Shown here in pieces: positions 6,486-26,067 of a stretch of 54,300 nt of DNA. The translations under genes were made by a program, and so were the position numbers. The notes beneath the pieces are model-generated. The model had not been told where the DNA came from and ran no database searches. It saw only the letters and a program-made list of their open reading frames with translations. The DNA comes from Frankiales bacterium (GTDB lineage: Bacteria > Actinomycetota > Actinomycetes > Mycobacteriales > SCTD01), in contig JAOPWI010000214.1 of the NCBI GenBank assembly GCA_025965755.1, positions 1 to 54,300 on the forward strand. Reading direction: 5' to 3'. Numbering within the stretch: position 1 is the stretch's first letter; the number at the start of each line of letters is the position of its first letter.

Positions 6486-6570
6486 CAGAGGCTCCTTCTG
6501 TGGCGTCCCGCACACGCTAGGGACCGCGCAGCACGAAATCATCGGCTCCTCAGCCCATACCTGCGCGATG

Positions 6571-6610: not shown

Positions 6611-7831
6611 GTGGCCTCTGCCCAGACCCTCGCCCTGCTGGCGACGACGGCCGGCACGGCGCTCGCGCGCTTCGACGAGCTCGTCGTCCTCGTCGTCGCC
6701 GACATCGAGCGGCAGCTGCCGGAACTGGCCTCCGACGCAGGTCTGCGCGAGTCCCTCGCGGTCACGATCTCCGAGAACCTCGGCGCCGCGCTGCGGCTGC
6801 TCGCCGATCCCGACGTCGGGCCGCCGCCTGCCCCGCGCCCGTCCCTGGACCACGCCCGGCGGATCGCCCAGCGCGGGCTGCCGCTGTCGGCCCTGCTGCG
6901 GGCCTACCGGCTCGGGCAGGCCGTCTTCCAGCAGTACGTCATCGCCGAGGTCGCGGGCGCCTCGTCCGACGCGGCCGTCGTGGCCGAGGGGGCGCAGCTC
7001 GTGTCGAGCGTGTCCTTCAGCTACGTCGACCGCATCTCGGGCGAGGTCGTCCAGGCCTACCAGACCGAGCGCGACTACTGGCAGCACCAGCGGATCGCCG
7101 CCCGCTCCGCCCAGGTGGACTCGGTCCTGTCGGGGCGCACCACAGAGCTGGGCGGGGTCGAGCGCGCCCTCGGCTACGCGGTCGACCAGCAGCACCTCGC
7201 GGCCGTCCTCTGGACCGACGCCACCGACGACGCGCTGCCGTCGCTCGAGCGGGCAGCCGGTGCGTTGGCCACCTCCGCCCGCTGCACGGGGCACCCCCTC
7301 GTGGTCGCTCGCGACGTGAGCACGGTGTGGGCCTGGCTGCCCTCGCCCCTCACGCCGCCGGACGTCGTGCTGGGCCCGGGTATCCGCGCCGCGCTGGGAA
7401 CCGAGCGCTCAGGGCTGTCCGGGTTCCGGGCCAGCCACGTGGAGGCCCTGGAGACCCAGCGCGTCGTGACGACGGCCGCGCCGTCGCGACGCCTGTCGAC
7501 GACGTCGGCGTCCTCCGTCGGCCCGCTGCGGCTGCTCTGCGACGACGTGGACCGTCTGCGGTCGTGGGTCCTCGGTGTGCTCGGGGCGCTCGCGCTGGAC
7601 GACGCTGGCACCGACGCGCTGCGGGAGACGGTCGCGGTGTTCCTCGCGTCGGGGCGCAGCTACGTGCACACCGGCAAGCAGATGAGCCTGCACCGCAACT
7701 CCGTGCAGTACCGCGTCAAGAAGGCTTGCGACGTGCTCGGCGAGCAGGCCCTGGAACGCCCCCTGGACCTGCAGCTCGCGCTGCTCGCCTGCCGGGTGCT
7801 GGGCGCTCCCGTGCTCACGCCGAAGGGCTAG
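6611..7831 (+). CDS. PucR/CdaR-family transcriptional regulator
   Basis: 406 aa. C-terminal HTH GRSYVHTGKQMSLHRNSVQYRVKKACDVLG is typical of the PucR C-terminal domain. Divergent from alkB. Confidence 0.75.
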   Translation: MASAQTLALLATTAGTALARFDELVVLVVADIERQLPELASDAGLRESLAVTISENLGAALRLLADPDVGPPPAPRPSLDHARRIAQRGLPLSALLRAYRLGQAVFQQYVIAEVAGASSDAAVVAEGAQLVSSVSFSYVDRISGEVVQAYQTERDYWQHQRIAARSAQVDSVLSGRTTELGGVERALGYAVDQQHLAAVLWTDATDDALPSLERAAGALATSARCTGHPLVVARDVSTVWAWLPSPLTPPDVVLGPGIRAALGTERSGLSGFRASHVEALETQRVVTTAAPSRRLSTTSASSVGPLRLLCDDVDRLRSWVLGVLGALALDDAGTDALRETVAVFLASGRSYVHTGKQMSLHRNSVQYRVKKACDVLGEQALERPLDLQLALLACRVLGAPVLTPKG

Positions 7832-8840: not shown

Positions 8841-8846
8841 CGGTCG

Positions 8847-10708: not shown

Positions 10709-10714
10709 GCGCGT

Positions 10715-10951
10715 TCAGTCGCGCAGGACCCCCAGCGCCACGGCCGCCACCAGGCACAGACCTGCCCCCGCGCAGGCGACGCTGCCGCGACGGAGCATGC
10801 GGGCGCGCAGGTCGCGCTCGTGCTCGTCCAGCACCGCGGGCGCCAGGACGGGCGCGTTGCGCCACCCCCAGATGCCGAGGCCCAGGAGCACGAGGGCGAC
10901 CAACACCACGAGGGCTGTCGTGAGCGCAGTGGCTCCCGCGGTCCTCGTCAC
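10715..10951 (-). CDS. Small 2-TM membrane protein, last gene of the Mce operon
   Basis: 78 aa with two hydrophobic helices. GTGA start/stop overlap with the upstream PPIase gene. Confidence 0.55.
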   Translation of the reverse strand: MTRTAGATALTTALVVLVALVLLGLGIWGWRNAPVLAPAVLDEHERDLRARMLRRGSVACAGAGLCLVAAVALGVLRD

Positions 10952-12249
10952 CTGGGCGGCGTCGCGGTCGGGACCGTCGAGGCGGCCGGCGGAGTGGGCA
11001 CCCCGAGGTCGGGCTCGGGATCGGCCGGGCGGTAGTCGGCCGCGTACTCGACGTCCGCGTCCACGACCAGGTCGATCACGTGGTCCCGCCAGACAGCGAC
11101 AGCCCGTTCCGTCTCCTGCTGCTGGCGCAGCTGGTCTCGCACCTGCTCGAAGGTGCTGGGGGCGCTTGGCACGACGCGGTCGACGCGACCGAGGTGCCAG
11201 CCCAGGGACGTCTGCACAGGCCCGAACAGGGCGCGCGCGGGCACGGCGAAAGCAGCAGCGGCGAAGGCGGGGTCGAGCTCCGCAGCAGTGAGCAGGCCCA
11301 GCTCACCGCCCTTGTCCTTGGTGCTGGTGTCGAGCGAGGTCTGTGCCGCGACAGCGGTGAGGTCCTGGCCGGCGCGCAGTCTGCGCAGAACTGCCTGTGC
11401 GACCGCCTGTTCCGCCACGACGATGTGCCGGACCTGCCGCCGCTCCGGCACGGCGTACGTGGCCGGGTCCGCTGAGAACATCGCCTGCAGCTCGGCGTCG
11501 GTGACCTCGACCTCGTCGGTCGTGCGGTCGAACAGGTCTCGCACCTCGAGCTGGCGGCGGATCTCGGCGAGCACGTCCTTCTCCCCCACCCCCTGCGCCC
11601 CGAGCGCCTGCACGTACGCGGCCCGGCCGCCCTGCGGGTAGCGCTGGAGCAGGAAGCGGTCGAGGGCGTCGCTCACCGTCTTGTCGGCGATGCGGATGTC
11701 CTGTGCGCGCGCGGCGTCATCCAGGACGAGGCTGATGGCCATCGCCTTGGCGGTGTCCCTGCGGAAGCGGTCGAGGCCGGCGGCGTCCTCGGGCACCTGC
11801 ACCCCGTACAGCGCCCGCAGGACGTCGGTGCGTCGCTGGACCGCGGCCTCCGTGACCACGCGGTCCCCCACCCGAAAAGCCGCATCCTGCGGGAGGCCGG
11901 CCCACGGCGCCCAGCGCACCAGGCCGGCCGCACCGACCGCGACGACCAGCACGGCGAGCAGGGCCACCTTCGCCGTCCGACGGGAGCGGGCAGCCGGAGC
12001 GGGTCCCCCGTCCGCGACGGGGGGTGTGACCGCTTCCGCCACGCTCTCGCTGTCGGCACCAGGGAGCGACGCACGGCTGCCCTGCGTCCGGGCGACGTCG
12101 GGCGTCGGCGGGCCGACCTGGACGGCCTCAGCGAGCTGCTCCAGCTGCGGCGGGGTCGCCCCGTGCTTGGCGCGACCCTCGTGGGTGTCGTCGGCGACGC
12201 CGACCGCGGTCGTGTCGCTCCCGGGTTCTTCGACGTTGCTGTCGCTCAT
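10948..12249 (-). CDS. Membrane-anchored peptidyl-prolyl cis-trans isomerase (parvulin/PpiC domain, PrsA/SurA-like)
   Basis: N-terminal TM (AKVALLAVLVVAVGAAGLV). C-terminal rotamase region RQVRHIVV...GGELGLL...FGPVQTSLGWHL. Start set at the ATG at 12249, which overlaps the MMPL stop as ATGA. Confidence 0.8.
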   Translation of the reverse strand: MSDSNVEEPGSDTTAVGVADDTHEGRAKHGATPPQLEQLAEAVQVGPPTPDVARTQGSRASLPGADSESVAEAVTPPVADGGPAPAARSRRTAKVALLAVLVVAVGAAGLVRWAPWAGLPQDAAFRVGDRVVTEAAVQRRTDVLRALYGVQVPEDAAGLDRFRRDTAKAMAISLVLDDAARAQDIRIADKTVSDALDRFLLQRYPQGGRAAYVQALGAQGVGEKDVLAEIRRQLEVRDLFDRTTDEVEVTDAELQAMFSADPATYAVPERRQVRHIVVAEQAVAQAVLRRLRAGQDLTAVAAQTSLDTSTKDKGGELGLLTAAELDPAFAAAAFAVPARALFGPVQTSLGWHLGRVDRVVPSAPSTFEQVRDQLRQQQETERAVAVWRDHVIDLVVDADVEYAADYRPADPEPDLGVPTPPAASTVPTATPPR

Positions 12250-14561
12250 CGGGTGGCCAGCTCCGGTTCCGGAGTGCTCGTCCTGCACGTGTTCTCATCC
12301 TTCGTGTCCGTCTTGCTCTTGGCAGCCCCTGCACAGGCGACGACGAGGGCACTGCTCATGTAGGCGAGCAGGAGCGACCCGACGAGGACGAGGCCGAACT
12401 CCTGGATCACCCGGAGGTCGCTCGCGAGCAGGGCCAGGAAGCCGGCGACCCCGGTGGCCGCCGCGACGCCCACGGCGTGCTGCACGGGCCGGTGCCCGGA
12501 CTGCCGCGCGTACAGCCCGAGCAGGGTGAACTCGCAACCGACGGCGGCGACCAGCGCACCGAGCGAGGTGGTCAGCGGTGACACGCCGAGCCCGCTGACG
12601 GCGAGGGCGGCGAAGCCCCAGCCGGCGGCCAGGCCGGCCGCGAGCAGCGCCCACAGCGCGTCCCGCCGCCGTCTCAGCCCGAGAGCGGCCACCACGGTGA
12701 GCACGGCCAGGGCGATCAGGTTGGGCAGGACGCGGTCGCGCGTCAGGGCGTCGTAGCCCTCAACGGCCACGACCGGCAGGCCGGCGACCCGCACGCTCGC
12801 TCCGGGCGGAGGCGGGGGCAGGGCGGCGCGCACGTCGTCGAGCAGGACCTGCAGCTGCGCCAGGTCAGCGATGCGGATGCCGAGCGTCACGACCGACTCG
12901 CGCCGGTCACTGCGCACCACCGCCCCGAGCAGGTACGGCGGTACGAGGTCAGCCGCTGCGAGGACCTGGCTGGACGTCGGGGACGGACCGACGAAGCCCA
13001 GCAGCGTGTCTGGGCTCGCGAGGACGCGCAGCCGGTCCCCCAGCCTGACGACGAGAGCCTCCTCGGCGGCCCGGCTCCAGGCCAGGGCCTCGGGGGCGAG
13101 CACGTCGGGCGCGCGCAGGACCACCGCGACCTCGCCGGTAGCGCCGAGGACGCGCTCCGCCTGCTCGGCCTCGTGGACGGCCGGCAGACCTCTCGCAGTG
13201 CTCTGCGGACTGGCCTCGACCTCCAGCCGGGGCAGGCTCCACCAGCCTCCTGCGGCGAGCACCGTCCCGGCCAGGAGCAGCGCGAGCAGCCGAGGCCGAC
13301 GCGACGGAGCCCGCACCGGCTCCCCGACAGGGACGGCCGCGGATCGCGCGCCGGCCGTAGCCCGTGGCGTCGTGACGAGCGCTACCGCGAGCGAGGCGAG
13401 CACCCCGAGCGCGAGGGCGAGACCGAGCCCGCGGACGAAGGGCAGCGGGGACAGCCCGAGGGAGGCGAAGGCGGCCGCGCTCGCCACGCCCACGACGACC
13501 ACGACGCGACGGTCTGGTCGACCGGCGAGGTAGACGGGGTAGTTGTTGCCGACACCGATGAGGATGGGCATCAGCGCCAGCATGCCGAGCGACAGCGGCG
13601 CACCCACGAGCCCGAGCACCGCGAGCGTCGTCGCGGTCGCCGTGACGGCGGCCAGCAGGGGCAGCAGTCGCGCACGACGCGGTCCGCGGCCCGTCCCGAG
13701 CAGCACCACGCCGACCAGGACGACCGCGAGCGCGCCGAGACCGGGCAGCTCGCGCCGCACGGTGTCCGCGAGCGCGGCGGACAGGACGGGCGTCCCGGTG
13801 ACCCGGACCTGCGCGCCGTCGAGGTCGGCTTCGCGCACAGCCGAGCGGACGGCTCGTGTCAACGCCTCGGTGTCCAGCTGGTCCAGGTCCTCGCGCGGAC
13901 GCACCAGGACGGCGACGCTGCGCGGCGACGGCAGCACGAACCGGTACTGCGGTCGCGGCCGCGCGTCGGGGCCGTACGCGACGCTCTTGACGAAGCCGGG
14001 GTTGCTCAACGTCGGCAGGCCCGCGTCGAGACCTCCGGCGAGCAGCGAGCCGTACCGCCGGTCGAACCCGGCGGTCGCACGGTCCCCCGCTGCCTGCACC
14101 TGCGCGGCGGACCCGCCCGCGTCCTGCGCCTTCTTGCGCGCCACGTCCCGTAGTCCGTCGCGGCGTCCGCTGATGCGTGCCAGCAGCTGCTGCGTCTGCG
14201 CCGCGACCTGGTTCAAGGAGGTGGCCGGTCCGTAGACGACGGCGACGTCCTCCAGCCCCGCCAGCCGACCCTCGAGCCGCAGGAGCTCCGGCAGCACCTC
14301 CGGCGACAGCATCCCGCCGTCGGTGCGCGCGGTGAGCAGCACGACGACGGGGTCTCCGCCGAAGGAGCTCTGCAGGTCCCGCAGGTCGTCGGCGCTGGTC
14401 GACGTCGCAGGCAGGAAGGACCGGATGCCGGTGTCCACCTCGAGCCGGACCAGGCCGGCGACGGCGAGCGCCCCGACGAGCAGGAGTCCGGCGGCCCGCC
14501 GCAGGGCGGGGGCTCCTGCCGCTCCTGCCCGCAACGGGCGCCCGGTTCGTCGCCACCTCAC
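12246..14561 (-). CDS. MMPL/RND-superfamily (HAE3-like) membrane transporter-like protein
   Basis: 771 aa. Two-fold repeat of large extracytoplasmic loops plus TM bundles. The N-terminal pattern VDTGIRSFLP..GGDPVVVLL is typical of MMPL/HpnN-like proteins. GTGA overlap with the last mce gene. Confidence 0.8.
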   Translation of the reverse strand: MRWRRTGRPLRAGAAGAPALRRAAGLLLVGALAVAGLVRLEVDTGIRSFLPATSTSADDLRDLQSSFGGDPVVVLLTARTDGGMLSPEVLPELLRLEGRLAGLEDVAVVYGPATSLNQVAAQTQQLLARISGRRDGLRDVARKKAQDAGGSAAQVQAAGDRATAGFDRRYGSLLAGGLDAGLPTLSNPGFVKSVAYGPDARPRPQYRFVLPSPRSVAVLVRPREDLDQLDTEALTRAVRSAVREADLDGAQVRVTGTPVLSAALADTVRRELPGLGALAVVLVGVVLLGTGRGPRRARLLPLLAAVTATATTLAVLGLVGAPLSLGMLALMPILIGVGNNYPVYLAGRPDRRVVVVVGVASAAAFASLGLSPLPFVRGLGLALALGVLASLAVALVTTPRATAGARSAAVPVGEPVRAPSRRPRLLALLLAGTVLAAGGWWSLPRLEVEASPQSTARGLPAVHEAEQAERVLGATGEVAVVLRAPDVLAPEALAWSRAAEEALVVRLGDRLRVLASPDTLLGFVGPSPTSSQVLAAADLVPPYLLGAVVRSDRRESVVTLGIRIADLAQLQVLLDDVRAALPPPPPGASVRVAGLPVVAVEGYDALTRDRVLPNLIALAVLTVVAALGLRRRRDALWALLAAGLAAGWGFAALAVSGLGVSPLTTSLGALVAAVGCEFTLLGLYARQSGHRPVQHAVGVAAATGVAGFLALLASDLRVIQEFGLVLVGSLLLAYMSSALVVACAGAAKSKTDTKDENTCRTSTPEPELATR

Positions 14562-15853
14562 TCGCGCTCCTCGACCACCCGGGTGTAGTCGCCGTCGAAC
14601 GGCCCCGGGCTCGCCGCTTGCCCGGGGCGGGGATAGGCGTTGGACTTGTCGAGGGCCCCGGTGTTCGTGGCGTAGGGCAGTCCTCGCACGGACTGCTCGT
14701 TGGCGATGGCGAACACCCGCAGGTAGTGGCCGTTCGCGTCCGACTGACGCAGGTTCGCCGAGAAGTTGGAGAAGAAGGCCCCGAGGTCGGCGCCGTAGGG
14801 CTGCAGGTAGGCCAACATCGGGTTCAGGTCCGCGAGGGCGACACGTGCGCGCGGTACGAGGGCCTGTCCCTGCTTCGCGAGCCGCGGCGTGCGCTGCAGC
14901 GTGGCCGGCGCCTTGTCCAGCACGCCCTGCAGCGCCGGCACCGACGACCGGAGCTCGCGTGCCGTCGCCGGCAGCTCGAGCAGGGCGGCGTCCAGGGCGG
15001 GCGCCGCCAGGCGCAGGTCCGCGGCGACCGGCGCCAGCACGGTCGCCAGCTCCTGCAGGTCGCGGGTCGCGGTGGTGGCGGACGAGGCGAGCCCCGGGAG
15101 TGCCTGCACGGACGAGGCCACGTCGGTCGACCGTGCGGCCGTGACTGAGGACAGCTGCTGCGCCGACTCGACGAGGCGGGTGATGTCGCCGTGTCCGCCG
15201 TCGAGCGCGCTCAGCAGGACGGCGGTCTGCCGTGACAGGGCCGTCAGGTCGGCCGACTGAGCGGCGAGAGCGTCGACGGTGGTCGCGCCCTCACGGCCGA
15301 GCCCGCCTGCTCCTTCGAGCAGAGCGTCGAGGTCGGCGCCGCGCCCGTCCGTGCTCCTGGCCAGGGACTGGACCGTCTGCTGCAGCGCGGTCCTCGTCTT
15401 CGGGTCCAGGGAGCGCAGGACGTCGTCGAGCTGGACGGAGGCCAGCTCGGCCGTCGCCGGCAGCGTGCCGCCGTCCTCGATCTGGGGCCCGCTGCCGTCC
15501 ACGACTTCGAGGTAGGACTCCTCGATCAGGGTCTTGCTGCGCAGGCGGAGCGTGGCGCCCTGGTGCAGGGGAGCCGTGTCCTCGTCCAGCTGCATGACCA
15601 CGCGGGCGGCCCCGTCCCGCGTCTCCAGCTCCCGCACCTTGCCGGCCAGGACGCCGGCGATGCGCACGTCCGAGTCGTAGGACAGGTTCTGCACGTCCGA
15701 GACCGTGGCAGCCACGCGGTACCCCTCGGTGAGGGGCCCGAGCTGACCGCCCATCTTCACCCACATGAACAGGAAGAACGCGAGGCAGGCCAGGAGGAAG
15801 GCGAGCACCACGCCCAGCCGGACCTTCGGGAGCGACGCTGCGGGGATCCTCAT
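14558..15853 (-). CDS. Mce-family substrate-binding protein (6th of 6, MceF position)
   Basis: N-terminal TM, then an MCE domain (..DVRIAGVLAGKVRELE..), then a long helical region. 4-nt overlaps with both neighbours. Confidence 0.85.
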   Translation of the reverse strand: MRIPAASLPKVRLGVVLAFLLACLAFFLFMWVKMGGQLGPLTEGYRVAATVSDVQNLSYDSDVRIAGVLAGKVRELETRDGAARVVMQLDEDTAPLHQGATLRLRSKTLIEESYLEVVDGSGPQIEDGGTLPATAELASVQLDDVLRSLDPKTRTALQQTVQSLARSTDGRGADLDALLEGAGGLGREGATTVDALAAQSADLTALSRQTAVLLSALDGGHGDITRLVESAQQLSSVTAARSTDVASSVQALPGLASSATTATRDLQELATVLAPVAADLRLAAPALDAALLELPATARELRSSVPALQGVLDKAPATLQRTPRLAKQGQALVPRARVALADLNPMLAYLQPYGADLGAFFSNFSANLRQSDANGHYLRVFAIANEQSVRGLPYATNTGALDKSNAYPRPGQAASPGPFDGDYTRVVEERE

Positions 15854-17115
15854 CGGGTGGTGCCCTTCTCGGCAGCGCTGACGTCGGGCAGGCCCATCGG
15901 GACGGAGTTGGGGCTGACCTGGAACAGGCCGCGCAGGATGCCTCCGTTGGCGTCCTCCAGGCTCGTCACGCTCGTCGTGTTGTAGACGAAGTCCTTGACG
16001 TCAGGGAGGTACTCCACGAGCTCGGCGGTGGCCGCGTCGGCTCGGCTGGTCACCCGACGGACGTCGGACAGGACGGGCCGCAGGTCAGCCAGGACCGGGC
16101 GCAGGTCGGCCACGAGGGGCCGGGCCTGCCGCGCCAGCGGGCCCGCGACGTCGAGCGTGCTGTCCAGCCGCCCGACCGTCTTCTGCAGCTGGTCGAGGGC
16201 GGCCGGGAGCTCCTCGCTGGCACCGCTGAGCGCGTCCAGAGCCGGGTCGAGCTCCTCGGTCAGGGCGCTCACGCTGGTCGTCGCCCGCTGCAGCTCCGCC
16301 GTGACGCCCGGCAGCTCGGCGAGAGCGGCGTCCAGCTCGTCGTCGCTGTCGCGCAGGACGGACAGGGTGGCCCGCGCGTCGGAGACGAGCGAGGTCAGAC
16401 GGACGTCGTCGCGGCCGGCGGCCGCCGCGATGTCGGACAGGGAGGTGACGAGCCGGCGGATCGTGTCGCGGCGCTGCGCCAGCTGCTCGACGACCGGTTG
16501 CAGCGACGTCAGGGTGCCGTCCGCAGCCTCGAGGCCGGGGGGCAGGTCGACGGCAGCGTTGGCCAGCCCGACGTCGGCCTCAGCCAGGAGGCTGCCGACC
16601 GCCGTGCGCGACTCCTCGTCGAGGTGCTGGAGGACCTCGTCCACCTGCTCGGGGTCCTCGGTCTGGCTGGCCGGGATGACGCCACCCTCGCGGAGCGGCT
16701 TGCCGGGTGCGCCTCCAGCCGCGACCTCGACGTACATCTCGTTCAGCGGGCTCTTGGGCCGCAGAACGAGACGCGCGTTGTCGTAGACCCGGCTCGCTCG
16801 GTCGCCATCGAGCTTGAGCGTGAGGCGGGCGCGGCCGTCGTCCGTGACGTCAGCGCCCACGATGTCGCCGACGGTGACGCCGGCCATGCGCACCTCCTGA
16901 CCGTTGCCGGGGCTGATACCGGGTGCTTCCTCGAAGTCCGCCGCGAAGGTGAAGCTGTCGTCCCAGGGCGAGGAGACCCGCTGCTGGCTGAGGATGTAGC
17001 CCCCGACGACGAGACCCAGGACGACGAGTCCGGCGATCACGGCGGTGTCCCGAGGGAGGCCAGGGGTGCGGCGCAGCCGGTCGAGCAGCCGGGAGGTGCG
17101 GGTGGGGCTGCTCAC
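15850..17115 (-). CDS. Mce-family substrate-binding protein (5th, MceE position)
   Basis: GTG at 17115 forms a GTGA overlap with the upstream stop. TM AVIAGLVVLGLVVGGYIL, then an MCE domain (VRMAGVTVGDIVG). The N-terminal 460 aa of the track ORF is Arg/Pro junk read across the neighbouring gene. Confidence 0.85.
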   Translation of the reverse strand: MSSPTRTSRLLDRLRRTPGLPRDTAVIAGLVVLGLVVGGYILSQQRVSSPWDDSFTFAADFEEAPGISPGNGQEVRMAGVTVGDIVGADVTDDGRARLTLKLDGDRASRVYDNARLVLRPKSPLNEMYVEVAAGGAPGKPLREGGVIPASQTEDPEQVDEVLQHLDEESRTAVGSLLAEADVGLANAAVDLPPGLEAADGTLTSLQPVVEQLAQRRDTIRRLVTSLSDIAAAAGRDDVRLTSLVSDARATLSVLRDSDDELDAALAELPGVTAELQRATTSVSALTEELDPALDALSGASEELPAALDQLQKTVGRLDSTLDVAGPLARQARPLVADLRPVLADLRPVLSDVRRVTSRADAATAELVEYLPDVKDFVYNTTSVTSLEDANGGILRGLFQVSPNSVPMGLPDVSAAEKGTTR

Positions 17116-18392
17116 GGTGTGGTCCCTTCGAGGCCGAGCAGGTCGGCGAACAGGGCGTCGACCGGCAGGGGCGGGACGCCGCCGACGCTCTCGGTGCCCG
17201 GGCCGGGGTGGAAGGCGAGGGTCGCGCCGTTGGCATCGGTCATCTTCGCGGTGGCGGCCAGCCCGGCGAACATGTAGCCGAGCTCCTGATAGAGCGGCGT
17301 CTTCCCGCGGTAGGGGCTCAGGACGGCCTTGAGGACGGGGCCGCGCAGACGGTCGACGACCGGGCCGCGGACGTCCTCCGTGACCTGCTCCGCCTGGCGC
17401 ACCACGGGAACAGCGTCGACCAGCATCGGACGCAGGTCGCGGGCCAGCAGCCGGACGTCGGCCACGACGGGGCGGGCCTCGGCGAGGACAGGCCGTGCGG
17501 CCCGCAGGAGCTGCGCGCCCTCCCTCATCGTGGCCTGGAGTCGGGGCGCGGTGTCCTGAACCTTGGTCAGCGTGCGGTCGAGGCGGGTCAGGGCAGCCCG
17601 GGTGACCTCGAGGGTCCGCGGCGCGGCCACGATCGTGCGGGCGATCGCCTCCCGCTGTCCGTTCAGCACTCCGGTCGCGCCTGCACCGGCCCGGAGCATG
17701 CCGTCGAGCTCGCCCTGCTCGGCGGACAGCGCACGGCCCGTGTCCTCGAGGCCTTGGACGAGGGACGACAGGTCGTCCTCCGGCTCCGAGCCGCGGAGGG
17801 CCTGCAGGACCTGGCCGGCCGGCTGCAGCGTGTCGGGGGCACGTTCGACCAGGGCCTGGGCGGCCGCTGCACCCCGCGGCTGCGTCGCGCCCTCGAGCTG
17901 CGTGATGGACGTCCTGAGGCCGTCCCTCTGCTCCGGCCCGATCTGCTCGAGGACCCGGTCGAGCTCGACGGGGACCGTGGTGCGGGCGGCCGGGACACGG
18001 CCGACGGGCTTGCCCGGGTCCCCGCCGGGCGAGAGCGCGACGTAGTAGTTCCCACCCAGCAGCGTGGTCGGACGGATGGCTGCGCTCGGGCTGGTTCCCA
18101 GCTTGGCCAGCGTGCCCTTGTCGAGCTTGACCGTCAGCAGGGCGTTCTCCCCCGCCTTCTCCACGCCGGTCACCACGCCGACCGGCACGCCGGCCACCTT
18201 GACCCGGCTCTGGTTGTCCCGGAGCCGGTAGTCCCGCTCGGCCTCGATGAGCAGCGTGTCGCCGGAGGCGAGCCGGACCGCGAGGGCGGACTTGTTGAAG
18301 AGCAGCACGCCGACGAGGGCGGCGACGCTCAGGAGCAGGGCCCCCAGCTGCAGCCGGCTCAGCCGTGGCAGTCGGCCTGTGAGCGCCTTCAT
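17112..18392 (-). CDS. Mce-family substrate-binding protein (4th, MceD position)
   Basis: TM plus MCE domain (VKVAGVPVGVVTGVE). 426 aa. Overlapping start and stop codons. Confidence 0.85.
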   Translation of the reverse strand: MKALTGRLPRLSRLQLGALLLSVAALVGVLLFNKSALAVRLASGDTLLIEAERDYRLRDNQSRVKVAGVPVGVVTGVEKAGENALLTVKLDKGTLAKLGTSPSAAIRPTTLLGGNYYVALSPGGDPGKPVGRVPAARTTVPVELDRVLEQIGPEQRDGLRTSITQLEGATQPRGAAAAQALVERAPDTLQPAGQVLQALRGSEPEDDLSSLVQGLEDTGRALSAEQGELDGMLRAGAGATGVLNGQREAIARTIVAAPRTLEVTRAALTRLDRTLTKVQDTAPRLQATMREGAQLLRAARPVLAEARPVVADVRLLARDLRPMLVDAVPVVRQAEQVTEDVRGPVVDRLRGPVLKAVLSPYRGKTPLYQELGYMFAGLAATAKMTDANGATLAFHPGPGTESVGGVPPLPVDALFADLLGLEGTTP

Positions 18393-19651
18393 CGTGGCTG
18401 TCCTGACGTCGTCTGCTTCTGCGCCTCACCGGGAGCGGGGTAGGCGTTGCGTGAGGTGATCGGGTCGGGGAGCGTCGTGCCGAGCGGCCCCGCACCCGAG
18501 AACGACTCGCTGTTCGCGAGGGTGTTCAGCCGGAGCCAGTGGCCGTTCTTGTCCCCCTCGGACAGCGCGTCGCTGGCGTACGCGAACCACAGCGAGACCT
18601 CCGGGCTGTACGGCGCGAGCACGTCCAGCGGCGTCGCGGCCAGCGTGACGGCGCGCCGCACCTTCGGTGCGAGCGGACGGGCGTCGGTCACGAGGCCGGT
18701 CAGTCCGTCGACGGCCGGCAGCGCCTGCTGCGCGACGCCCGGCACGTCCTGCAGCGGCTCGACGACGTCGCGCAGCGTGGCGCGGATGTCGGCCGTGCTG
18801 TCACCCAGCGCCGCACCACCGTCGCGCAGGCCGCCGGCCGTCACCCGGAGGTCGTCGAGGGGACGCCCGAGGTCGACCAGCGCCTTCCGGGTCTCCCCGA
18901 GCGTCGTGGGCAAGCGCTCCAGCGTGCTGTCCAGCGGGGCCCCGTCGTCGACGGCGAGGTCCCCGAGGTTCACGTCCATCTCCCGGACGAGGTCGCCGAG
19001 CTCCTGCTCACGGCCCTTGAGACGCTGGGACAGCGTCCGCGCCGTCGTGAGGAGCGTGTCGAGGTCCGCCTCCGGTGCGCTCAACGCCCGGCTCACCCGT
19101 GCGCTGTCCTCCAGCAGGTCCGGGCTGGCGCCGAGCAGGTCGTTCAGGTCCTCGGCGTGCCGGGCCGCGCCCCGACCGGCCGTGCGCACGGTGGCCGCCA
19201 ACGCGGTCCGGGTCGGCTCGTCGAGCACGGCGAGCAGGGCGTCCAGGTCCGTGGCGTTGCCGGCAGGACCCGGCTCGAGGACCGCGCCGTCGGGCAGCCG
19301 GCCGGCGGCCGGTGTGCCCGGGTCGAACTGCACGAGCTTCTGCCCCAGAGCGCTGCGGGCGTCGACGAAGGCCTTCGCGTCGCGGTAGACCGGCCGCTCC
19401 CCGTCGAGCTGCAGCACGAGGCGCGCCTTGCCGGCCTTGCCGGCGATGTCGCGCACCTGGCCCACGCGGACCCCGTTGCTGCGGACGTCGTTGCCGACGC
19501 GCAGGGCCGGGCCGATGTCCTCGAAAGCCACGTCGACGAGGGTGTAGTCACGACCGACGAGGCCGCGCTGGCTGGTGAAGGCGATACCGAGGCTCAAGGT
19601 GAAGGCCACGAGAACTGCACCGCCGGTCACGGTCGCCTTGTTGAGGCTCAT
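18389..19651 (-). CDS. Mce-family substrate-binding protein (3rd, MceC position)
   Basis: TM plus MCE domain (VRSNGVRVGQVRDI). 420 aa. Overlapping start and stop codons. Confidence 0.85.
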   Translation of the reverse strand: MSLNKATVTGGAVLVAFTLSLGIAFTSQRGLVGRDYTLVDVAFEDIGPALRVGNDVRSNGVRVGQVRDIAGKAGKARLVLQLDGERPVYRDAKAFVDARSALGQKLVQFDPGTPAAGRLPDGAVLEPGPAGNATDLDALLAVLDEPTRTALAATVRTAGRGAARHAEDLNDLLGASPDLLEDSARVSRALSAPEADLDTLLTTARTLSQRLKGREQELGDLVREMDVNLGDLAVDDGAPLDSTLERLPTTLGETRKALVDLGRPLDDLRVTAGGLRDGGAALGDSTADIRATLRDVVEPLQDVPGVAQQALPAVDGLTGLVTDARPLAPKVRRAVTLAATPLDVLAPYSPEVSLWFAYASDALSEGDKNGHWLRLNTLANSESFSGAGPLGTTLPDPITSRNAYPAPGEAQKQTTSGQPR

Positions 19652-21045
19652 CGCCGGCCACCCAGCAGGGTGCCGAGCAGGCTCTTCTCCTGCTCGACGG
19701 TCAGCCCGGTGGCGCTGCCCGGGTCGACGAGCGGCAGCGTCGGCCGTCCGGGGAGCTTCGGCAGCACGGTGGTCGGCGCGGCCGTGGTCGGCGCCTTGCC
19801 CGCGAGCGACGGCAGGTTTTTCGTGATGCCCTTGACCGGTGTGTCGACCGGGACCGGACCCATCAGGGTCTCCTCGCTGATGATGGCGTGGGCGCGGAAG
19901 TAGTGGCTGAGCCCGTCCCTGCCGTTCGTGGTCAGCGCCCAGTTGCGGATGAACTCGAGCAGGTTCGAGAGCTTCTGGTCGTCCCCGATCAGGCCCAGTG
20001 CGACCGGCGCTGCGTCCCTCGCCGCCGACCGTGCGGCCGGGCCGGCCGCCTCGAGGTCGGCCGCGACGGGACGGGCCTGGGTGACGAGCTGCTGCGCCTT
20101 CTCGAGGACGGGCTGCAGGCTGGCGAGCGCCGGGTCCACCGTCCTCCCGAGCCGGTCCAGCTCGCCGCTGATCTCACGGATGTCGCTCGTGACCGGGCGC
20201 ACGTCCTGCAGCAGCGGGGTGGCCTGCTCCGACGTCGCCGCCAGAGCCGCCAGCCGCGACCGGGCCTCCCGCAGCGTGGCGGGAAGCACCTGCAGCGTCT
20301 GCCGCAGGGCTGCCTGCCGCCGCGCGGTCGTGTCGAGCAGCAGGCTCGCACTGTCGACGAGGCCGTCCAGGCGCTTCCCCCGGTCGGCGCCGAGCGAGGC
20401 CGCCACCGGCGTCACCGCGTCGACGAGCTCGTTGAGGGTGCCGTTCTGCTCGCGCAGGATGCCGACGAGCTCATCGGCGTCCTGCAGGGCGCCCGGCAGC
20501 GTGCGCAGGGCGGTACCGGCGGCGGCGCCGTTGCCCCGCACACCGATGCCGAGCGTCGTGAGCGTCGCGGCCAGCGCCTCCCCGGTCGGCTCGTCGACGA
20601 CGTCCAGCACCTCGTCGAGGTCAGCGAGACGGCCGGTCTGCGACGGCGGCAGCTCCGCGCCGTCCTCGAGGAGCGGCGCGGCGGCGCTCCCGGTGTCGAG
20701 GTCGACGTAGCGCTCCCCCAACAGGCTGACCGGCTTGATGACGGCCTTCGCGTCGCGGTGGACGGGCAAGAACTGGGGCGCGACGGTGAAGGTCATGACG
20801 GCCTTGCCCTTGACGAGCTGGATGGAGTCGACCTTTCCGGCCGTGACGCCGCCGACCTTGACCTCGTTGCCGGGGATCAGGGCGCTGGCGTCGGTGAACA
20901 CGGCAGTCAGCTCGAGCGCGTCGTCCTGCTGCACGCGTTGGGAGGTCGCGCCTGCGGTCAGCGCGACGAGCGCGACGGCGGCGACGCCGAGGACAGGAGC
21001 CTGTCGCCGGCCGCGGGGCCCGAGGCGGGGCAGAGTGCGCGTCAT
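19648..21045 (-). CDS. Mce-family substrate-binding protein (2nd, MceB position)
   Basis: ATG at 21045 forms an ATGA overlap with the upstream stop. MTRTLPRLGP.., TM, then an MCE domain (VKVGGVTAGKVDSI). The upstream part of the track ORF is not protein-like. Confidence 0.85.
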   Translation of the reverse strand: MTRTLPRLGPRGRRQAPVLGVAAVALVALTAGATSQRVQQDDALELTAVFTDASALIPGNEVKVGGVTAGKVDSIQLVKGKAVMTFTVAPQFLPVHRDAKAVIKPVSLLGERYVDLDTGSAAAPLLEDGAELPPSQTGRLADLDEVLDVVDEPTGEALAATLTTLGIGVRGNGAAAGTALRTLPGALQDADELVGILREQNGTLNELVDAVTPVAASLGADRGKRLDGLVDSASLLLDTTARRQAALRQTLQVLPATLREARSRLAALAATSEQATPLLQDVRPVTSDIREISGELDRLGRTVDPALASLQPVLEKAQQLVTQARPVAADLEAAGPAARSAARDAAPVALGLIGDDQKLSNLLEFIRNWALTTNGRDGLSHYFRAHAIISEETLMGPVPVDTPVKGITKNLPSLAGKAPTTAAPTTVLPKLPGRPTLPLVDPGSATGLTVEQEKSLLGTLLGGRR

Positions 21046-22313
21046 CGGATCGGGCTCCCGTTCGCGTCGGTCCACGGCTGACCCTCGAGCTCGCCCGGCT
21101 GACGCTGCGGGTTGGTCTTGACCAGGCCGAGGTCGCCCAGCGCCGGTCCGAGCGCACCCGGCGAGCCGAGGACGGACGCGGGACCTGCCTGGACGTAGAT
21201 GCGCGTGTAGTTGCCGTACACGTCGTAGTTGGCGGTGGCCGAACCCCAGTTGGCCAGCCAGCCGGTGACCTCGGGCGTGTAGGGCCGCAGGAAGTCGAGC
21301 GCGGGCAGCGCGCCCTTCGTCAGCTGGGTGAGGCCGGGCAGGACCGCGTTCGCGCCGTCGAGCAGGCGGGGGGCGTCGTCCAGGAGGACGGACACCTGGT
21401 TCAGCGTGGGCCGAAGGTCCTGCAGGGCGGGGCGCAGGTCCTGCAGCAGCGGCCGGAGGTCCGCCGACACGGCCGGCAGCTGCGCGGCGAGCGGGGCCGC
21501 ATCGCGCAGCAGCGGGTCCGCCGCGGCGACCGTGCCCGGCACGCGGTCGAGGGTCGACGTCGCCTGGCGCAGCGTGCCCGGCAGGGCGGCGAGCGTGGCG
21601 TCCAGGCTGGACCGCTCCCTCGCGGCGCGCTGGGTGAGGCTCGTCAGGTCTGCGACGACGGCCCGCACGTCCTGGCGCCGTGTCGTGGTCACGTCTGTCA
21701 CGTCCCGCAGACGGGTGACGAGGCTCTTGAGTGCCTCGCCGTCGCGCCCGACGGACGCGGCGATGCCGCCGAGGGCCTGGACGACTGGTCCGGCGGTGCG
21801 CAACGTGCCGTTGACGTCGTCCTCGCTCCCCCGCAGGGTCGCGGCGAGGTTCTGGGTGAGGCGCTGCAGGCGGGCGCGGGTCGGCGCATCGAGCGCGGCG
21901 AGCAGCTGGTCGAGCTCGACGCGCTGCCGGCTGCCCTCGACGCGACCGCGGTCGGGCAGGTCGGGGTTGCTGGCAGGTCCCGGCTCGATGACCAGGGTCC
22001 GCTCCCCGAGCAGTGCCTTCCACTCGATGCGGGCGGTCGTCCCGGTCCGCAGCGGCGCGTACTCGTCGGCGATGGACACCGTGACGAGCGCCTGACCGTC
22101 GCGGACCTCGAGGGACTGGACGCGTCCGGCGTCGGCGCCGTCGACCTCGACCTTGCCACCCTTCACGAGGTTCGGCGCGGACGGCATGACGACGGTGACC
22201 TCGTAGCCACCGCCGGTCAGACCGCCCGCGGCGGCCTGACCGGCGGCGAACAGGACGAGCAAGCCGGCGACGCCGGCGGCCGCGGGACGGAGGCGTGCGG
22301 AAAGCGCTGGCAT
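21042..22313 (-). CDS. Mce-family substrate-binding protein (1st, MceA position)
   Basis: TM plus MCE domain (KVEVDGADAGRVQSLE). The start at 22313 (MPALSARL) lies 1 nt after the ATPase stop. The alternative start at 22346 would overlap the ATPase gene by 32 nt. Confidence 0.8.
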   Translation of the reverse strand: MPALSARLRPAAAGVAGLLVLFAAGQAAAGGLTGGGYEVTVVMPSAPNLVKGGKVEVDGADAGRVQSLEVRDGQALVTVSIADEYAPLRTGTTARIEWKALLGERTLVIEPGPASNPDLPDRGRVEGSRQRVELDQLLAALDAPTRARLQRLTQNLAATLRGSEDDVNGTLRTAGPVVQALGGIAASVGRDGEALKSLVTRLRDVTDVTTTRRQDVRAVVADLTSLTQRAARERSSLDATLAALPGTLRQATSTLDRVPGTVAAADPLLRDAAPLAAQLPAVSADLRPLLQDLRPALQDLRPTLNQVSVLLDDAPRLLDGANAVLPGLTQLTKGALPALDFLRPYTPEVTGWLANWGSATANYDVYGNYTRIYVQAGPASVLGSPGALGPALGDLGLVKTNPQRQPGELEGQPWTDANGSPIR

Positions 22314-22314
22314 G

Positions 22315-23091
22315 TCAGTCCATCCCGAGCGGGCCAGCGCTGTCACCGGCGAGGAACTGCCGCACGAACGGGTCCTCCGACTCGAACGCCTCCTCGGTCG
22401 GGCCGTAGTGGATCAGCCGGCCCTGCCAGATGAGGCCCACGTAGTCGCTGACCTTGCGGGTCGTGGGGATGTTGTGCGTGACCAGCACGTACGTCCCGCC
22501 GTGCTCGGCGTGCATGTCCAGGATGACGTCGTTCAGCAGGCTGGTGCGGACGGGGTCGAGGCCGGAGTCGGGCTCGTCGAACAGGACGACGTCGGGGTTC
22601 AGCACCAGGGCGCGGGCGAAGCCGGCGCGCTTGCGCATGCCGCCGGACACCTCGTTCGGAGACTTGCCGGCGGCGGCCTCGAGACCAACCTCGGCCATGC
22701 GTCGCATGACCAGCTCCTCGATCTCGCTCTCGCTCATGTCCGTGTGCTTGCGGAGCGGGAAAGCGATGTTGTCATAGATGTTCATGGAGCCGAACAGGGC
22801 GCCGTCCTGGAACAGCACCCCGTAGCGGATGCGCATCTCCCGACGCTCCTTCTCCGACATCTCGCTCACCGGCCGGCCGAAGAAGCGGATCTCGCCCTGG
22901 TCCGGGTCGAGCAGCCCGACCAGGTGCTTCAGCAGGACGCTCTTGCCGGTGCCGGACGGGCCGAGCACGGTCGTGATGGCGCCGTCGACGAAGGGGATGG
23001 TCAGACCCCGCAGGATCTTGAAGTCGCCGAAGGCCTTGTGGACGTCGTCCACCTGGACGGCGACCTTGGTCTCGGGGGGTGCGATGCTCAC
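22315..23091 (-). CDS. ABC ATP-binding protein of the MlaF/Mkl (MceG) family
   Basis: Walker A GPSGTGKS, signature VSGGMRKR, Walker B VVLFDEPDSGLD. GTG start at 23091 is preceded by GGAGA. 258 aa. Confidence 0.9.
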   Translation of the reverse strand: MSIAPPETKVAVQVDDVHKAFGDFKILRGLTIPFVDGAITTVLGPSGTGKSVLLKHLVGLLDPDQGEIRFFGRPVSEMSEKERREMRIRYGVLFQDGALFGSMNIYDNIAFPLRKHTDMSESEIEELVMRRMAEVGLEAAAGKSPNEVSGGMRKRAGFARALVLNPDVVLFDEPDSGLDPVRTSLLNDVILDMHAEHGGTYVLVTHNIPTTRKVSDYVGLIWQGRLIHYGPTEEAFESEDPFVRQFLAGDSAGPLGMD

Positions 23092-23171
23092 GGGGTCTCC
23101 ACGTCGTTCGGGCAGGGCGAGGCGAGCTCGCTGCGGGCAGTGCGGGCGCGGCAGCGCTGGCCGCGGGTGGG

Positions 23172-24041
23172 CTAGTTCGAGATGGGCGCGTTCGGGCTCA
23201 GACCCCAGAACAACATCGTCCCCAGGACCCCGATGACGTGGATCAACACCATGTTCACCATCATCGATGTGGCGGTGGCCTTGCCCACCCCGATCGGTCC
23301 GCCTCGGGCGTTGTAGCCGTAGTAGCAGCCGACGACCACGATCACGACACCCATGGTCATGACCTTGATGAGGCTGTACAGCAGGTCGAGCGGGTTCTGG
23401 TACAGCCAGAAGATGAAGTCGTAGCCGCCGGAGGAGACTTCGCCGAACTGCAGGACGACGACGATGTACTCCGCCGTGTACATGACGCCGAGACCGACGA
23501 TGTAGAGGAACGGCATCGCCAGCAGGGCGGCGGCGAGCCGGCTCGCGACCAGGTAGGTCTTCGAGTCGACGCCCATGACCTCCATCGCGTCGATCTCGTC
23601 GCTGATGCGCATGGAGCCGATCTCGGCGACGAGCCCGCAACCGACCTTCGCCGCGAGGATGTATCCCCACATGTAGGGCGCCATCTCCCGGATCGCGCAC
23701 CAGGCGGTGAAGATGCCGGAGTAGAGCGGCGCCCCGATCTGCTTCAGGACGTAGTTGCCCTCGATGCCGCACTGCGCTCCGATGACGAACAGCATCAGCC
23801 AGATGATCAGCCCGCTGGACAGGATCAGCACGGCGGTCTGGCGCACCACCTCGCTCGGGTACTCGCGCAGGTCGACGATCCGGCGTCCGATCGACACACC
23901 GAAGCGGGTGATGTCCGCCGTCACCTCGGCCAGGTGCCTGGCCTGCCCGACGACGAAGCCAGCGGTCAGCTCGACGTCGGGGACGCTCTGCGGTGCGCGG
24001 CCAGGAGCGGAGCGCCGAGGGGTCTGGTCGAGGAGCGTCAC
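23172..24041 (-). CDS. MlaE/YrbE-family ABC permease (YrbEB position)
   Basis: 289 aa polytopic membrane protein with typical YrbE sequence (..ISDEIDAMEVMGVD..). 4-nt overlap with the upstream permease gene. Confidence 0.9.
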   Translation of the reverse strand: MTLLDQTPRRSAPGRAPQSVPDVELTAGFVVGQARHLAEVTADITRFGVSIGRRIVDLREYPSEVVRQTAVLILSSGLIIWLMLFVIGAQCGIEGNYVLKQIGAPLYSGIFTAWCAIREMAPYMWGYILAAKVGCGLVAEIGSMRISDEIDAMEVMGVDSKTYLVASRLAAALLAMPFLYIVGLGVMYTAEYIVVVLQFGEVSSGGYDFIFWLYQNPLDLLYSLIKVMTMGVVIVVVGCYYGYNARGGPIGVGKATATSMMVNMVLIHVIGVLGTMLFWGLSPNAPISN

Positions 24042-24958
24042 TTGAACACCTGCATCTGCGGGTTGAGGCCGAGCAGGATCGTGGTGAAGACGTAGTTGAA
24101 GATCCAGATCGTCGCGAAGGCGATGACGACCGCCTGGTTGACCGCCCTACCGACGCCAGCGGGACCGCCCTTGGTGTTCAGCCCCTTGTAGCAGCAGATG
24201 ACGGCGATGAACAGACCAAAGATGGCCGTCTTCAGCACGCTGCCCCACAGGTCCGTCACCGTGGCGTTGGCGAAGAAGTTCGCGAAGAACCCTCCGCTCG
24301 TCGCCCCCAGGAGCGGCACCGAGGCGATCCAGCCGCCGGCGATGCCGAAGCTGAGGGCCACCAGGTCGAGGGCACCGGTGATGATGGTCAGCGCGATCAC
24401 GCGAGGCAGCACGAGGCTCCGCACGGGGTCGACGCCCAGGACCTCCATCGCGTCGATCTCCTCGCGGATGCGCCGCGCGCCCAGGTCAGCGGTGATGGCC
24501 GTGCCGATGACGCCGGCCACCACCATGGCGTTGATCCAGGGCGCGAACTCGCGCACGCTGGCCATGATGAAGAAGCTGCCCAGCCGCTCCGGGACCCCGA
24601 ACAGGCTGAAGAGGTTGCCGCCCTGCAGTCCCGGTGCGCCGAGGCCGAAGGCCAGGGTGCTGACGATCATGGGGAACCAGCACTTGCGGAGGATGTCGGC
24701 CATGACGTCGCGGACGTCGCCCCAGTAGCCCCGCGGCTGCAGGACGGCGCTCTTGATGACCTGTCCCAGCAGGAGCACCATCTCACCGGTCTCGTTGAGC
24801 CCCCGGACGAGCACCCCCGGGCCGCTCTTGTTCTTCTGGCGCTCGCGCCGGGGAGCCGGCGCGCTCAACGACGGTGCCGCGGGCGCACGGCGGCCGACGG
24901 CGCGCGTGCTCGCCGGGGCATGCGCCGTCTCAGAGGCGCCGTCGAACTGCAGGCTCAT
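24038..24958 (-). CDS. MlaE/YrbE-family ABC permease (YrbEA position), first gene of the Mce operon
   Basis: 306 aa with the motif IREEIDAMEVLGVDPV. Confidence 0.9.
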   Translation of the reverse strand: MSLQFDGASETAHAPASTRAVGRRAPAAPSLSAPAPRRERQKNKSGPGVLVRGLNETGEMVLLLGQVIKSAVLQPRGYWGDVRDVMADILRKCWFPMIVSTLAFGLGAPGLQGGNLFSLFGVPERLGSFFIMASVREFAPWINAMVVAGVIGTAITADLGARRIREEIDAMEVLGVDPVRSLVLPRVIALTIITGALDLVALSFGIAGGWIASVPLLGATSGGFFANFFANATVTDLWGSVLKTAIFGLFIAVICCYKGLNTKGGPAGVGRAVNQAVVIAFATIWIFNYVFTTILLGLNPQMQVFK

Positions 24959-25582
24959 ACCGACTCAATCCGCTTGAAGGGTGGCAAGTGCCACTTTGCG
25001 GGCAGGAGTTCGACGTGGTCCAGGCCACACCGGGGGGTGTTGGGCGTGCAACGGGGGGAAACGACCCCCCGAACGGGGGGTCGCTCACCTCGTCCCCGAG
25101 CGGCGATCCGGAGCGGCTGGGAGGCCGTGGGCGCAGACCTGTGCTGACCGGTGTGCCGGGCGGCTCGGCCGCCGCGGCGGTCGCCGACGGCACGGCCGGC
25201 GCGGCCATCGTGGCGGCGGCCTCCGCCAGCAGCGCGATCACCTGCGCGCTGGGTGGCCGGCCGCCCAGGCCCGAGCGGACGTAGCCCGCGCACGACAGCG
25301 CGTCCCCGCCCGGTCCGTGAGGACTCGGCGAGCTCGCGCTCGAGGGCGTCGGCGACCAAGCGCCCCCTCTCGCTGTCCGCGTCGAGGGGGACGACCTGCC
25401 CTGAGGGCAAGCCCGGTCCGCCGGCGTGCCAGGCCCAGCCTGATCGCCAGGTCGGTCAGTCCTGCGTCGCGCTGCGCACGCGTCCAGCGCTGCAGCGCGA
25501 CGTCCGGCCCGACCGGCCAGCCGGGCCGGCTCGCGAGCACCAGAGCAAGCCCCACCGCACGCCACCGAACGCCAGGCGCCAC
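24955..25582 (-). pseudogene. Possible frameshifted gene (remnant of a regulator?) immediately upstream of the Mce operon
   Basis: Minus-strand coding-like signal moves through three frames. These are ..VALQRWTRAQRDAGLTDLAI.., then GWAWHAGGPGLPSGQVVPLDADSERGRLVADALERELAE (GC3 about 97%), then DALSCAGYVRSGLGGRPPSAQVIALLAEAAATMAAP.. (GC3 about 96%). One frame ends in a TGA that overlaps the yrbEA ATG. The 3' extent is uncertain. Confidence 0.35.
24981..24994. promoter_or_regulatory. Perfect 14-bp palindrome just upstream of the Mce operon start (candidate operator)
   Basis: GTGGCA-AG-TGCCAC, 23-36 nt upstream of the yrbEA ATG, in a locally lower-GC patch. Confidence 0.3.
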
Positions 25583-25612
25583 GCCAACGACCTGCCTGCC
25601 GTCGCTACCCTC

Positions 25613-26065: not shown

Positions 26066-26067
26066 GA

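Follow-up and report, generated by a model that had tools for sequence, protein, structure and literature searches.

A recurrent actinobacterial Mce operon that also encodes an RND transporter, a membrane-anchored parvulin-like protein and a small two-helix membrane protein

Mce systems and MmpL-type RND transporters are the two main lipid-moving families of actinobacterial envelopes and have been studied separately. Here we analyse a 54,300-nucleotide stretch of DNA from a Frankiales bacterium (GenBank assembly GCA_025965755.1, contig JAOPWI010000214.1, positions 1 to 54,300 of the forward strand), referred to here as the window. Within it, a conserved, tightly packed and co-duplicating operon encodes a complete Mce ABC system together with an RND protein, a membrane-anchored chaperone of the parvulin type and a hairpin protein with two transmembrane segments (2-TM). 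All of the parts come from known superfamilies; their combination is fixed, widespread and new within the literature that could be searched.

In the mce loci of mycobacteria, Mam/Mas genes follow mceF and the ATPase is encoded elsewhere (PMC1810536, PMC13492129); an earlier note on this DNA, made from the sequence alone, had drawn the same picture of these loci, which agrees with both sources. The small membrane factors LucB and Mce1N partner mycobacterial Mce1 (PMC13492129). In the founding survey of actinobacterial mce loci, Mas lies downstream and mkl upstream, the Mas domain spans ~160 amino acids (aa), and RND proteins and isomerases go unmentioned (PMC1810536). We found no description of a mce–RND–parvulin operon in the searchable full-text literature (subscription-only literature lies outside it), which includes a review from July 2026 on the Mce systems of Mycobacterium tuberculosis, and the locus is one copy of a widespread, apparently undescribed subtype of actinobacterial Mce operon.

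The operon and its Mce core

Twelve consecutive open reading frames (ORFs) occupy the minus strand of the window (73% GC) from position 24958 to 10715. They were identified from ORF calls and profile searches against Pfam and NCBIfam, with transmembrane (TM) segments assigned by simple hydropathy, and they bear out the gene content and order read in the earlier note. In order of transcription, preceded by the upstream gap, the features are:

24959..25612, no strand: upstream gap of 654 nt, presumed promoter/regulatory region
24038..24958, minus strand: yrbEA, MlaE-type ABC permease with a ~60-aa N-terminal extension (Pfam MlaE, PF02405, 8e-60)
23172..24041, minus strand: yrbEB, second MlaE-type permease (Pfam MlaE, PF02405, 3e-57)
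22315..23091, minus strand: MceG/Mkl-like ABC ATPase, 258 aa, nucleotide-binding-domain core only (ABC_tran, 2e-27)
21042..22313, minus strand: mceA, alternative start GTG 22346 (MlaD, 1e-11)
19648..21045, minus strand: mceB (MlaD, 1.7e-13; ATGA overlap)
18389..19651, minus strand: mceC (MlaD, 2.7e-12; ATGA overlap)
17112..18392, minus strand: mceD (MlaD, 1.5e-9; ATGA overlap)
15850..17115, minus strand: mceE (MlaD, 5e-10, and Mce4_CUP1, 6e-7; GTGA overlap)
14558..15853, minus strand: mceF (MlaD, 7e-11; NCBIfam MCE family, 2e-29; ATGA overlap)
12246..14561, minus strand: Mce-associated RND transporter, 771 aa (Pfam MMPL, 5e-15, 55.7 bits against a cut-off of 20.5)
10948..12249, minus strand: membrane-anchored PrsA/SurA-like parvulin, 433 aa (Rotamase_2, 9e-22; SurA_N_3, 1e-8)
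10715..10951, minus strand: 78-aa 2-TM hairpin protein (ORF, two TM segments by hydropathy)

In the PDB, the first permease, YrbEA, is best matched by M. smegmatis YrbE1A in 8FED (9e-32). Encoded between yrbEB and mceA is the ATPase, for which the best NCBIfam match is MlaF (3e-59) and the best PDB match is M. smegmatis MceG, also in 8FED (residues 3–250, 2.8e-79); it is without the ~100-aa C-terminal tail of MceG. All six Mce proteins score above the cut-off for PF02470 and carry a single N-terminal TM segment each, and MceF is best matched in the PDB by a M. smegmatis Mce1 chain in 8FED. Orthology of mceA–F, as mapped by tblastn, is collinear across the related loci described below (mceA has a collinear orthologue in 68 of 70). 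By homology, the six different Mce proteins would form a heterohexameric ring and needle.

As in mycobacterial Mce1 and Mce4, there are two MlaE-type permeases, six different single-MCE-domain proteins with an N-terminal TM segment, and small membrane partners. The operon differs from those systems in three respects: the ATPase gene lies inside it, between yrbEB and mceA, and encodes no MceG tail; the Mam/Mas slot is taken by the RND, parvulin and 2-TM genes; and its hosts are without a mycolate outer membrane, Pseudonocardiales, Nocardioidaceae and Frankiales having, to our knowledge, no mycolic-acid outer membrane. Searches with Pfam and NCBIfam found no Mas or Mam gene after mceF, and the 78-aa protein, being shorter than 160 aa, is too short for a Mas domain. 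The mkl–yrbEAB–mceA–F–mas loci of Streptomyces and Nocardia share with this operon an ATPase gene within the operon, but there it comes first and Mas follows mceF (PMC1810536), whereas here it sits mid-operon and RND–parvulin–2-TM follow mceF. Gram-negative MlaFEDB also groups MlaF-, MlaE- and MlaD-type genes, and the ATPase described here is MlaF-sized; that system, however, has an MlaD homohexamer, an MlaE homodimer, the STAS partner MlaB, the soluble and outer-membrane partners MlaC and MlaA, and neither an RND protein nor a parvulin.

Nine of the 11 operon junctions are 4-nt start/stop overlaps (ATGA or GTGA), all at precisely the coordinates that the earlier note had claimed, including the GTGA overlap of the yrbEB start with the yrbEA stop. 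The remaining two are the junction before the ATPase gene, an 80-nt gap that is the largest in the operon, with GGAG 7 nt 5′ of GTG 23091, and the junction before mceA, a 1-nt gap (TGAcATG). The GTGA start of the RND gene has GAGGAG 5 nt upstream. Overlaps of 4 nt are also present in 6 of 18 same-strand pairs elsewhere in the window; being frequent outside the operon too, they mark operon membership and are no special evidence of stoichiometry, so that the earlier proposal of stoichiometric co-production from tight coupling was an over-reading. Public assemblies with identical sequence call the RND gene and the 78-aa gene in the same way; their parvulin gene begins at GTG 12288, 39 nt upstream of ATG 12249, and its overlap with the RND gene is retained. 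The 654-nt gap upstream of yrbEA contains no convincing ORF (the GC frame plot is ambiguous), no Rfam match and no sigma-70 consensus match, and its palindromes are short and unremarkable; a promoter with its operator could lie there, or else a small gene that escaped recognition.

Conservation and co-inheritance of the arrangement

Homologues of the RND protein number in the hundreds (45–79% identity), are annotated only as ‘RND transporter’ or ‘MMPL family transporter’, and come from Frankiales, Pseudonocardia, Amycolatopsis, Saccharopolyspora, Haloechinothrix, Nocardioides, Frankia and Acidimicrobiia. Scanning a collection of one genome per species with the RND alignment alone gave 80 loci, kept with 10-kb flanks and referred to here by L numbers where they need to be told apart. 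All twelve window proteins were mapped onto these loci by tblastn, and the denominators below are the loci with enough flank. The ATPase gene and six mce genes lie upstream of the RND gene in 68 of 70 loci; mceF is its immediate upstream neighbour in 74 of 75, and the parvulin gene its immediate downstream neighbour in 74 of 76. This is the mceF–MMPL–parvulin adjacency that the earlier note had proposed to look for in relatives as a test of its own reading; it is present, and chance juxtaposition is excluded.

The RND-anchored loci span Pseudonocardiales, Nocardioidaceae, Frankiales and Acidimicrobiia, and at least four orders. At the mceF–RND junction, a 4-nt overlap is found in 35 of 70 loci and a 1-nt overlap in 8; at the RND–parvulin junction, the corresponding figures are 45 and 16 of 76. 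Three of these loci depart from the common arrangement. L038 has the order mceF–parvulin–2-TM–RND and L066 has the ATPase gene shifted to a position after the parvulin gene, both with every component kept; in L055, the parvulin gene alone is lost and a 2-TM-like ORF lies directly 3′ of the RND gene. The ATPase gene is shifted as in L066, again with every component kept, in L090, L096 and L121. The reciprocal test, in which metagenome contigs were searched with the parvulin alignment, yielded 25 loci with at least 1 kb of upstream sequence, and the RND gene is upstream in 23 of them. Altogether, the operon type recurs in more than 100 loci from several groups of soil actinobacteria.

The components have also diverged together. 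In pairwise comparisons of 66 complete loci, the divergence of the RND protein is correlated with that of every Mce protein (r = 0.86–0.90), as is that of the parvulin (r = 0.84–0.86). Concordance between clusterings into 8 clusters is moderate (adjusted Rand index of 0.3–0.6), and we prefer the distance correlation and the comparison of paralogues. Two or three copies of the operon per genome are common; they are present, for example, in Pseudonocardia sp. H11422, P. bannensis, Nocardioides Root190 and Root682, Amycolatopsis acidicola, Haloechinothrix species and Protofrankia coriariae. Among eleven pairs of paralogues, each pair from a single genome, identity is 39–58% for RND, parvulin, MceA and MceF alike. 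This similar divergence indicates old duplications in which the operons were copied whole, and hence that each copy retained a private RND protein and chaperone rather than a shared one. The private accessory set of each operon is the strongest comparative argument for a specific partnership. Adjacency, conserved overlaps, co-duplication and divergence correlations (r = 0.84–0.90) together strongly support the functional mce–MMPL link that the earlier note had suggested.

The sole contig labelled ‘Mycobacterium sp.’ (L060) is nearest to a Pseudonocardia copy (75% RND identity); with that copy as its closest relative, we discount it as evidence for the operon in mycolata.

The accessory proteins

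For the RND protein, sequence search against the PDB gave no meaningful match, and only fold comparison is informative. The AlphaFold2 model, built with an alignment of 60 homologues (mean predicted local distance difference test (pLDDT) score of 90), comprises 12 TM helices and two ferredoxin-like extracytoplasmic porter domains, located after TM1 (PD1) and after TM7 (PD2). Inserted into PD1 is a 67-residue helical hairpin (residues 112–178), and in the alignment of 60 homologues PD1 is the region with the densest invariant residues. Foldseek comparison with the PDB returned MSMEG_3496, MmpL5, MmpL4, HpnN and MmpL3, and then NPC1L1 and Patched, with a probability of 1.0, a TM-score of ~0.62 and ~15% identity to MmpL4/5, HpnN and MmpL3.

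Among NCBIfam models, the best match is HAE3 (TIGR00921, 1e-40), at 139 bits under a cut-off of 351.9, and TIGR00833 reaches 26.6 bits against a cut-off of 874.7; the Pfam MMPL cut-off is exceeded, as listed above. Matches to the HpnN equivalogues failed (TIGR03480, 33 bits against 751.85; NF052374, 24 against 1100), so the resemblance to HpnN is structural only. Because every NCBIfam cut-off is missed and the fold matches are to lipid-type RND proteins, the protein represents a separate RND subfamily of lipid-transporter type. An analogy with SecDF–YajC/PpiD–YfgM, in which the RND protein, the anchored parvulin and the small TM protein would act as a secretion or assembly motor, was dropped as a family assignment: the fold is of the MmpL/HpnN/NPC1 type, and SecDF is not among the 50 Foldseek matches listed, all of which are MmpL, HpnN, NPC1L1 or Patched. 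We keep a chaperone role for the parvulin although this analogy was dropped.

With MmpL3, MmpL4/5 and HpnN (TCDB HAE2/HAE3), the protein has in common 12 TM helices, two porter domains and an acidic residue in TM10. It differs from them, beyond the low identity of ~15%, in having Glu–Phe rather than Asp–Tyr in TM10, a variable TM4 Asp, the hairpin in PD1 rather than PD2, no C-terminal cytoplasmic domain and no MmpS partner, and in being always encoded within a mce operon. The proton relay of the MmpL3 type consists of Asp–Tyr pairs in TM4 and TM10; these are absent from the window protein, which has N-N-Y in TM4 and C-E-F in TM10. The TM10 residue Glu677 (motif G-C-E-F) is invariant in 60 of 60 family sequences.

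The parvulin contains Rotamase_2, Rotamase and SurA_N_3 domains, all above the Pfam cut-off, and one TM segment (residues 91–117 by hydropathy; helix 90–113 in the model). Its AlphaFold2 model (overall pLDDT of 82, with values above 95 starting at residue 120) places a disordered cytoplasmic N terminus (residues 1–89) ahead of the TM helix, which is followed by an NC chaperone domain with an inserted parvulin domain. The best sequence matches in the PDB are to PrsA and the Foldseek matches to YacD, PrsA and SurA, and the cut-offs of all NCBIfam equivalogues are missed. An extramembranous NC chaperone domain split by one parvulin domain is common to PrsA, SurA, PpiD and YacD; PrsA, however, has a lipid anchor and SurA is soluble in the periplasm, whereas here a TM helix follows a disordered cytoplasmic N terminus of ~90 aa. 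The family differs further from these proteins in being mostly Asn/Asn at the catalytic positions and in being tied to one operon, rather than serving as a general secretion factor. The subfamily is discrete, with ~96 clusters at 148 bits or more and then a drop to generic PrsA/PpiD proteins, which lie outside a mce context (one that was checked is in an unrelated housekeeping context).

The window parvulin keeps both catalytic His residues, His275 and His352. Among 67 family members, the position of His275 is Asn in 64 and that of His352 is Asn in 62 (~95%). His/His parvulins are found only in the window, L001 and L002, which make up the window clade, and both reversion and ancestral retention are possible. 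Since most members of the family are Asn/Asn at the dual His positions, a role as chaperone or scaffold is more likely for the family than prolyl isomerization. The term ‘foldase’, used for this protein in the earlier note, is thus doubtful for the family, of which the window copy is one of the few His/His members.

The 78-aa protein matches no family above threshold in Pfam or NCBIfam. Its alignment has two TM helices with a conserved Arg-rich loop between them (G-x-W-G-x-R-N-A..L-V-P ... R-R-G). At least 45 of 76 loci have a homologous small 2-TM ORF 3′ of the parvulin gene, and the 78-aa ORF is called as a gene in independent assemblies.

Genomic neighbourhood and possible pathway

Approximately 4 kb past the end of the operon is an alkane-hydroxylase cluster (window 1866–7831):

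6611..7831, plus strand: PucR-type regulator, divergent
5070..6542, minus strand: AlkB–rubredoxin fusion (2e-157 to PDB 8F6T)
3655..4875, minus strand: rubredoxin/ferredoxin reductase
1866..3569, minus strand: GMC oxidoreductase

In the closest relative (L002), the order of the regulator, reductase and GMC genes is kept and AlkB is missing; among the loci examined, AlkB adjoins the operon only in the window. Three other loci (L031, L044 and L081) have a CYP108-like P450 (5e-163 to P450tol/P450terp) and a ferredoxin reductase, accompanied by alcohol dehydrogenase and aldehyde dehydrogenase genes in L031 and L044 and by a ferredoxin in L031 and L081. L004 has a Rieske dioxygenase, BphC, a hydrolase and an SCP2 protein, found by scan; the same genes were found by tblastn in L005 and L014. 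Such oxygenase neighbours, which some copies have in several independent lineages, hint at uptake of hydrophobic substrates. By analogy with Mce1–4, the paralogous operons would most likely be uptake systems for different hydrophobic carbon sources, although this reading is weakly supported.

Convergent with the operon end, at 8238–10708 on the plus strand, are genes for a GAF-HisKA_3 histidine kinase and a NarL/LuxR response regulator, and the two opposing stop codons lie only 6 nt apart. In at least nine related loci, a LuxR-type response regulator adjoins the 2-TM gene, and in several of the Pseudonocardia copies the two share a strand. The gene order suggests that a two-component regulator may be linked to the operon.

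Upstream of the operon, the minus strand carries a separate unit (25613–30205) that encodes an OmpR-type response regulator, a HAMP histidine kinase, an ABC ATPase, an ABC-2-type permease (the ATPase and permease identified from translations rather than by profile search) and a small lipoprotein-like ORF (MHPILKAALTGGLALAAAASLSGC...), with 4-nt overlaps at several junctions. Further on is a signalling block (31011–39614) that encodes an HD-domain response regulator, an HDOD double-receiver protein, an HNOBA-domain histidine kinase and a 1407-aa protein with PAS, GGDEF, EAL, GAF and HATPase domains. The sole Rfam match in the window is a tRNA gene (1281–1353, plus strand; RF00005, 66.9 bits).

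The data show which genes are present, their folds, the structure and conservation of the operon, its co-duplication and the reciprocal exclusivity of its parts. We consider it probable that all twelve products serve one envelope pathway for very hydrophobic substrates in actinobacteria without a mycolate outer membrane, a pathway whose physical complex, transport direction, energy coupling and substrate are inferred. In it, YrbEAB and the ATPase, together with the ring and needle of Mce proteins, would bring the substrate through the wall and into the membrane, which would be import, as in Mce1 and Mce4. The RND protein would handle the same substrate at the outer leaflet, loading or clearing a site beside the Mce ring; its energy would probably come from the proton gradient by way of the invariant Glu in TM10. 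The parvulin may act mainly as a holdase or assembly chaperone for the large exported parts of the RND protein and of all six Mce proteins. Like LucB and Mce1N, the 2-TM hairpin, with its basic cytoplasmic loop, could attach to the transporter at its TM or cytoplasmic face.

Several observations weigh against this pathway. The TM4 relay Asp is kept in only 31 of 60 family sequences and is Asn in the window copy, which makes coupling to the proton motive force uncertain; of the description ‘PMF-driven’ in the earlier note, the invariant TM10 Glu speaks for it and the variable TM4 position against. RND transporters are usually exporters, and Mce1 and Mce4 are importers, so a serial pathway needs an unusual direction for one partner. 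Two of the parvulin-anchored metagenome loci have no recognizable RND gene upstream: L088 has a 924-aa ORF (288–3062) whose N-terminal ~500 aa are without a family match, and in L099 (263–3754) the parvulin is preceded by a 450-aa ORF without a Pfam match. A scan of 9500–26500 on both strands for promoter and terminator consensus sequences gave no match and is uninformative at 73% GC; the internal promoter or terminator between mceF and the MMPL gene, which the earlier note had named as a counter-indication, is therefore not seen by a scan that says little for such genomes. An oxygenase component is within the flank in only 11 of 63 loci (~17%), and the two genes that come next after the operon vary widely among 55 loci, the commonest being LuxR-type response regulators, kinases, TetR regulators and short-chain dehydrogenases/reductases. 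Owing to this heterogeneity and the low share of oxygenase clusters, assignment of a substrate from the neighbours was rejected.

More tentatively, the RND protein might be docked on the YrbEAB/Mce ring as part of a doubly energized ABC–RND translocon for hydrocarbons or lipids in these actinobacteria without a mycolate outer membrane, powered by ATP and the proton gradient, with the His-less parvulin as its dedicated assembly chaperone and the 2-TM hairpin as a built-in regulatory subunit. We know of no transporter of such hybrid ABC–RND architecture.

It is unlikely that the operon encodes two independent, merely co-regulated transporters, an Mce system importing a hydrophobic, potentially toxic substrate and an RND protein acting as a protective efflux or membrane-homeostasis pump. 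The RND fold is that of the autonomous lipid and siderophore exporters MmpL3/4/5 and HpnN, some copies of the operon adjoin hydrocarbon oxygenase clusters, solvent-efflux pumps encoded next to hydrocarbon catabolic genes provide a parallel, and import and export would need no reconciling. Near-absolute, position-fixed adjacency with start/stop overlaps across classes is, however, rare under co-regulation; each paralogous operon has one private RND protein, and this RND subfamily is essentially never found elsewhere.

Less likely again is a pure biogenesis or stability module, in which the RND, parvulin and 2-TM proteins would replace Mam, LucA and LucB and the RND protein would be a transport-dead scaffold. 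Against a dead scaffold stand the full 12-TM architecture, the invariant membrane residue Glu677 and the conserved porter domains, which are hallmarks of active transporters. Such a module would nevertheless be consistent with the TM4 Asp missing from half of the family, the window copy included, with the replacement of the parvulin catalytic His in ~95% of members, which fits a non-enzymatic role, and with the small TM partners known to stabilize or regulate Mce1; the three genes also fill the Mam/Mas slot (PMC1810536, PMC13492129). A pairing by chance, in this genome only, of a mce operon with an unrelated MMPL–parvulin pair has in its favour only that such a combination is unknown in mycobacteria, and is made vanishingly improbable by the same order in 74 of 75 and 74 of 76 loci from four taxa and by the 23 of 25 metagenome loci.

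Genera of industrial and ecological importance carry the gene package (Amycolatopsis, Pseudonocardia, Saccharopolyspora, Nocardioides and Frankia), and the operon offers a directly testable case of cooperation between ABC and RND transporters. It is a candidate for the route by which hydrocarbon degraders take up alkanes, terpenes and aromatics, and may provide a new angle on the accessory roles of Mam and LucA in the tuberculosis systems.

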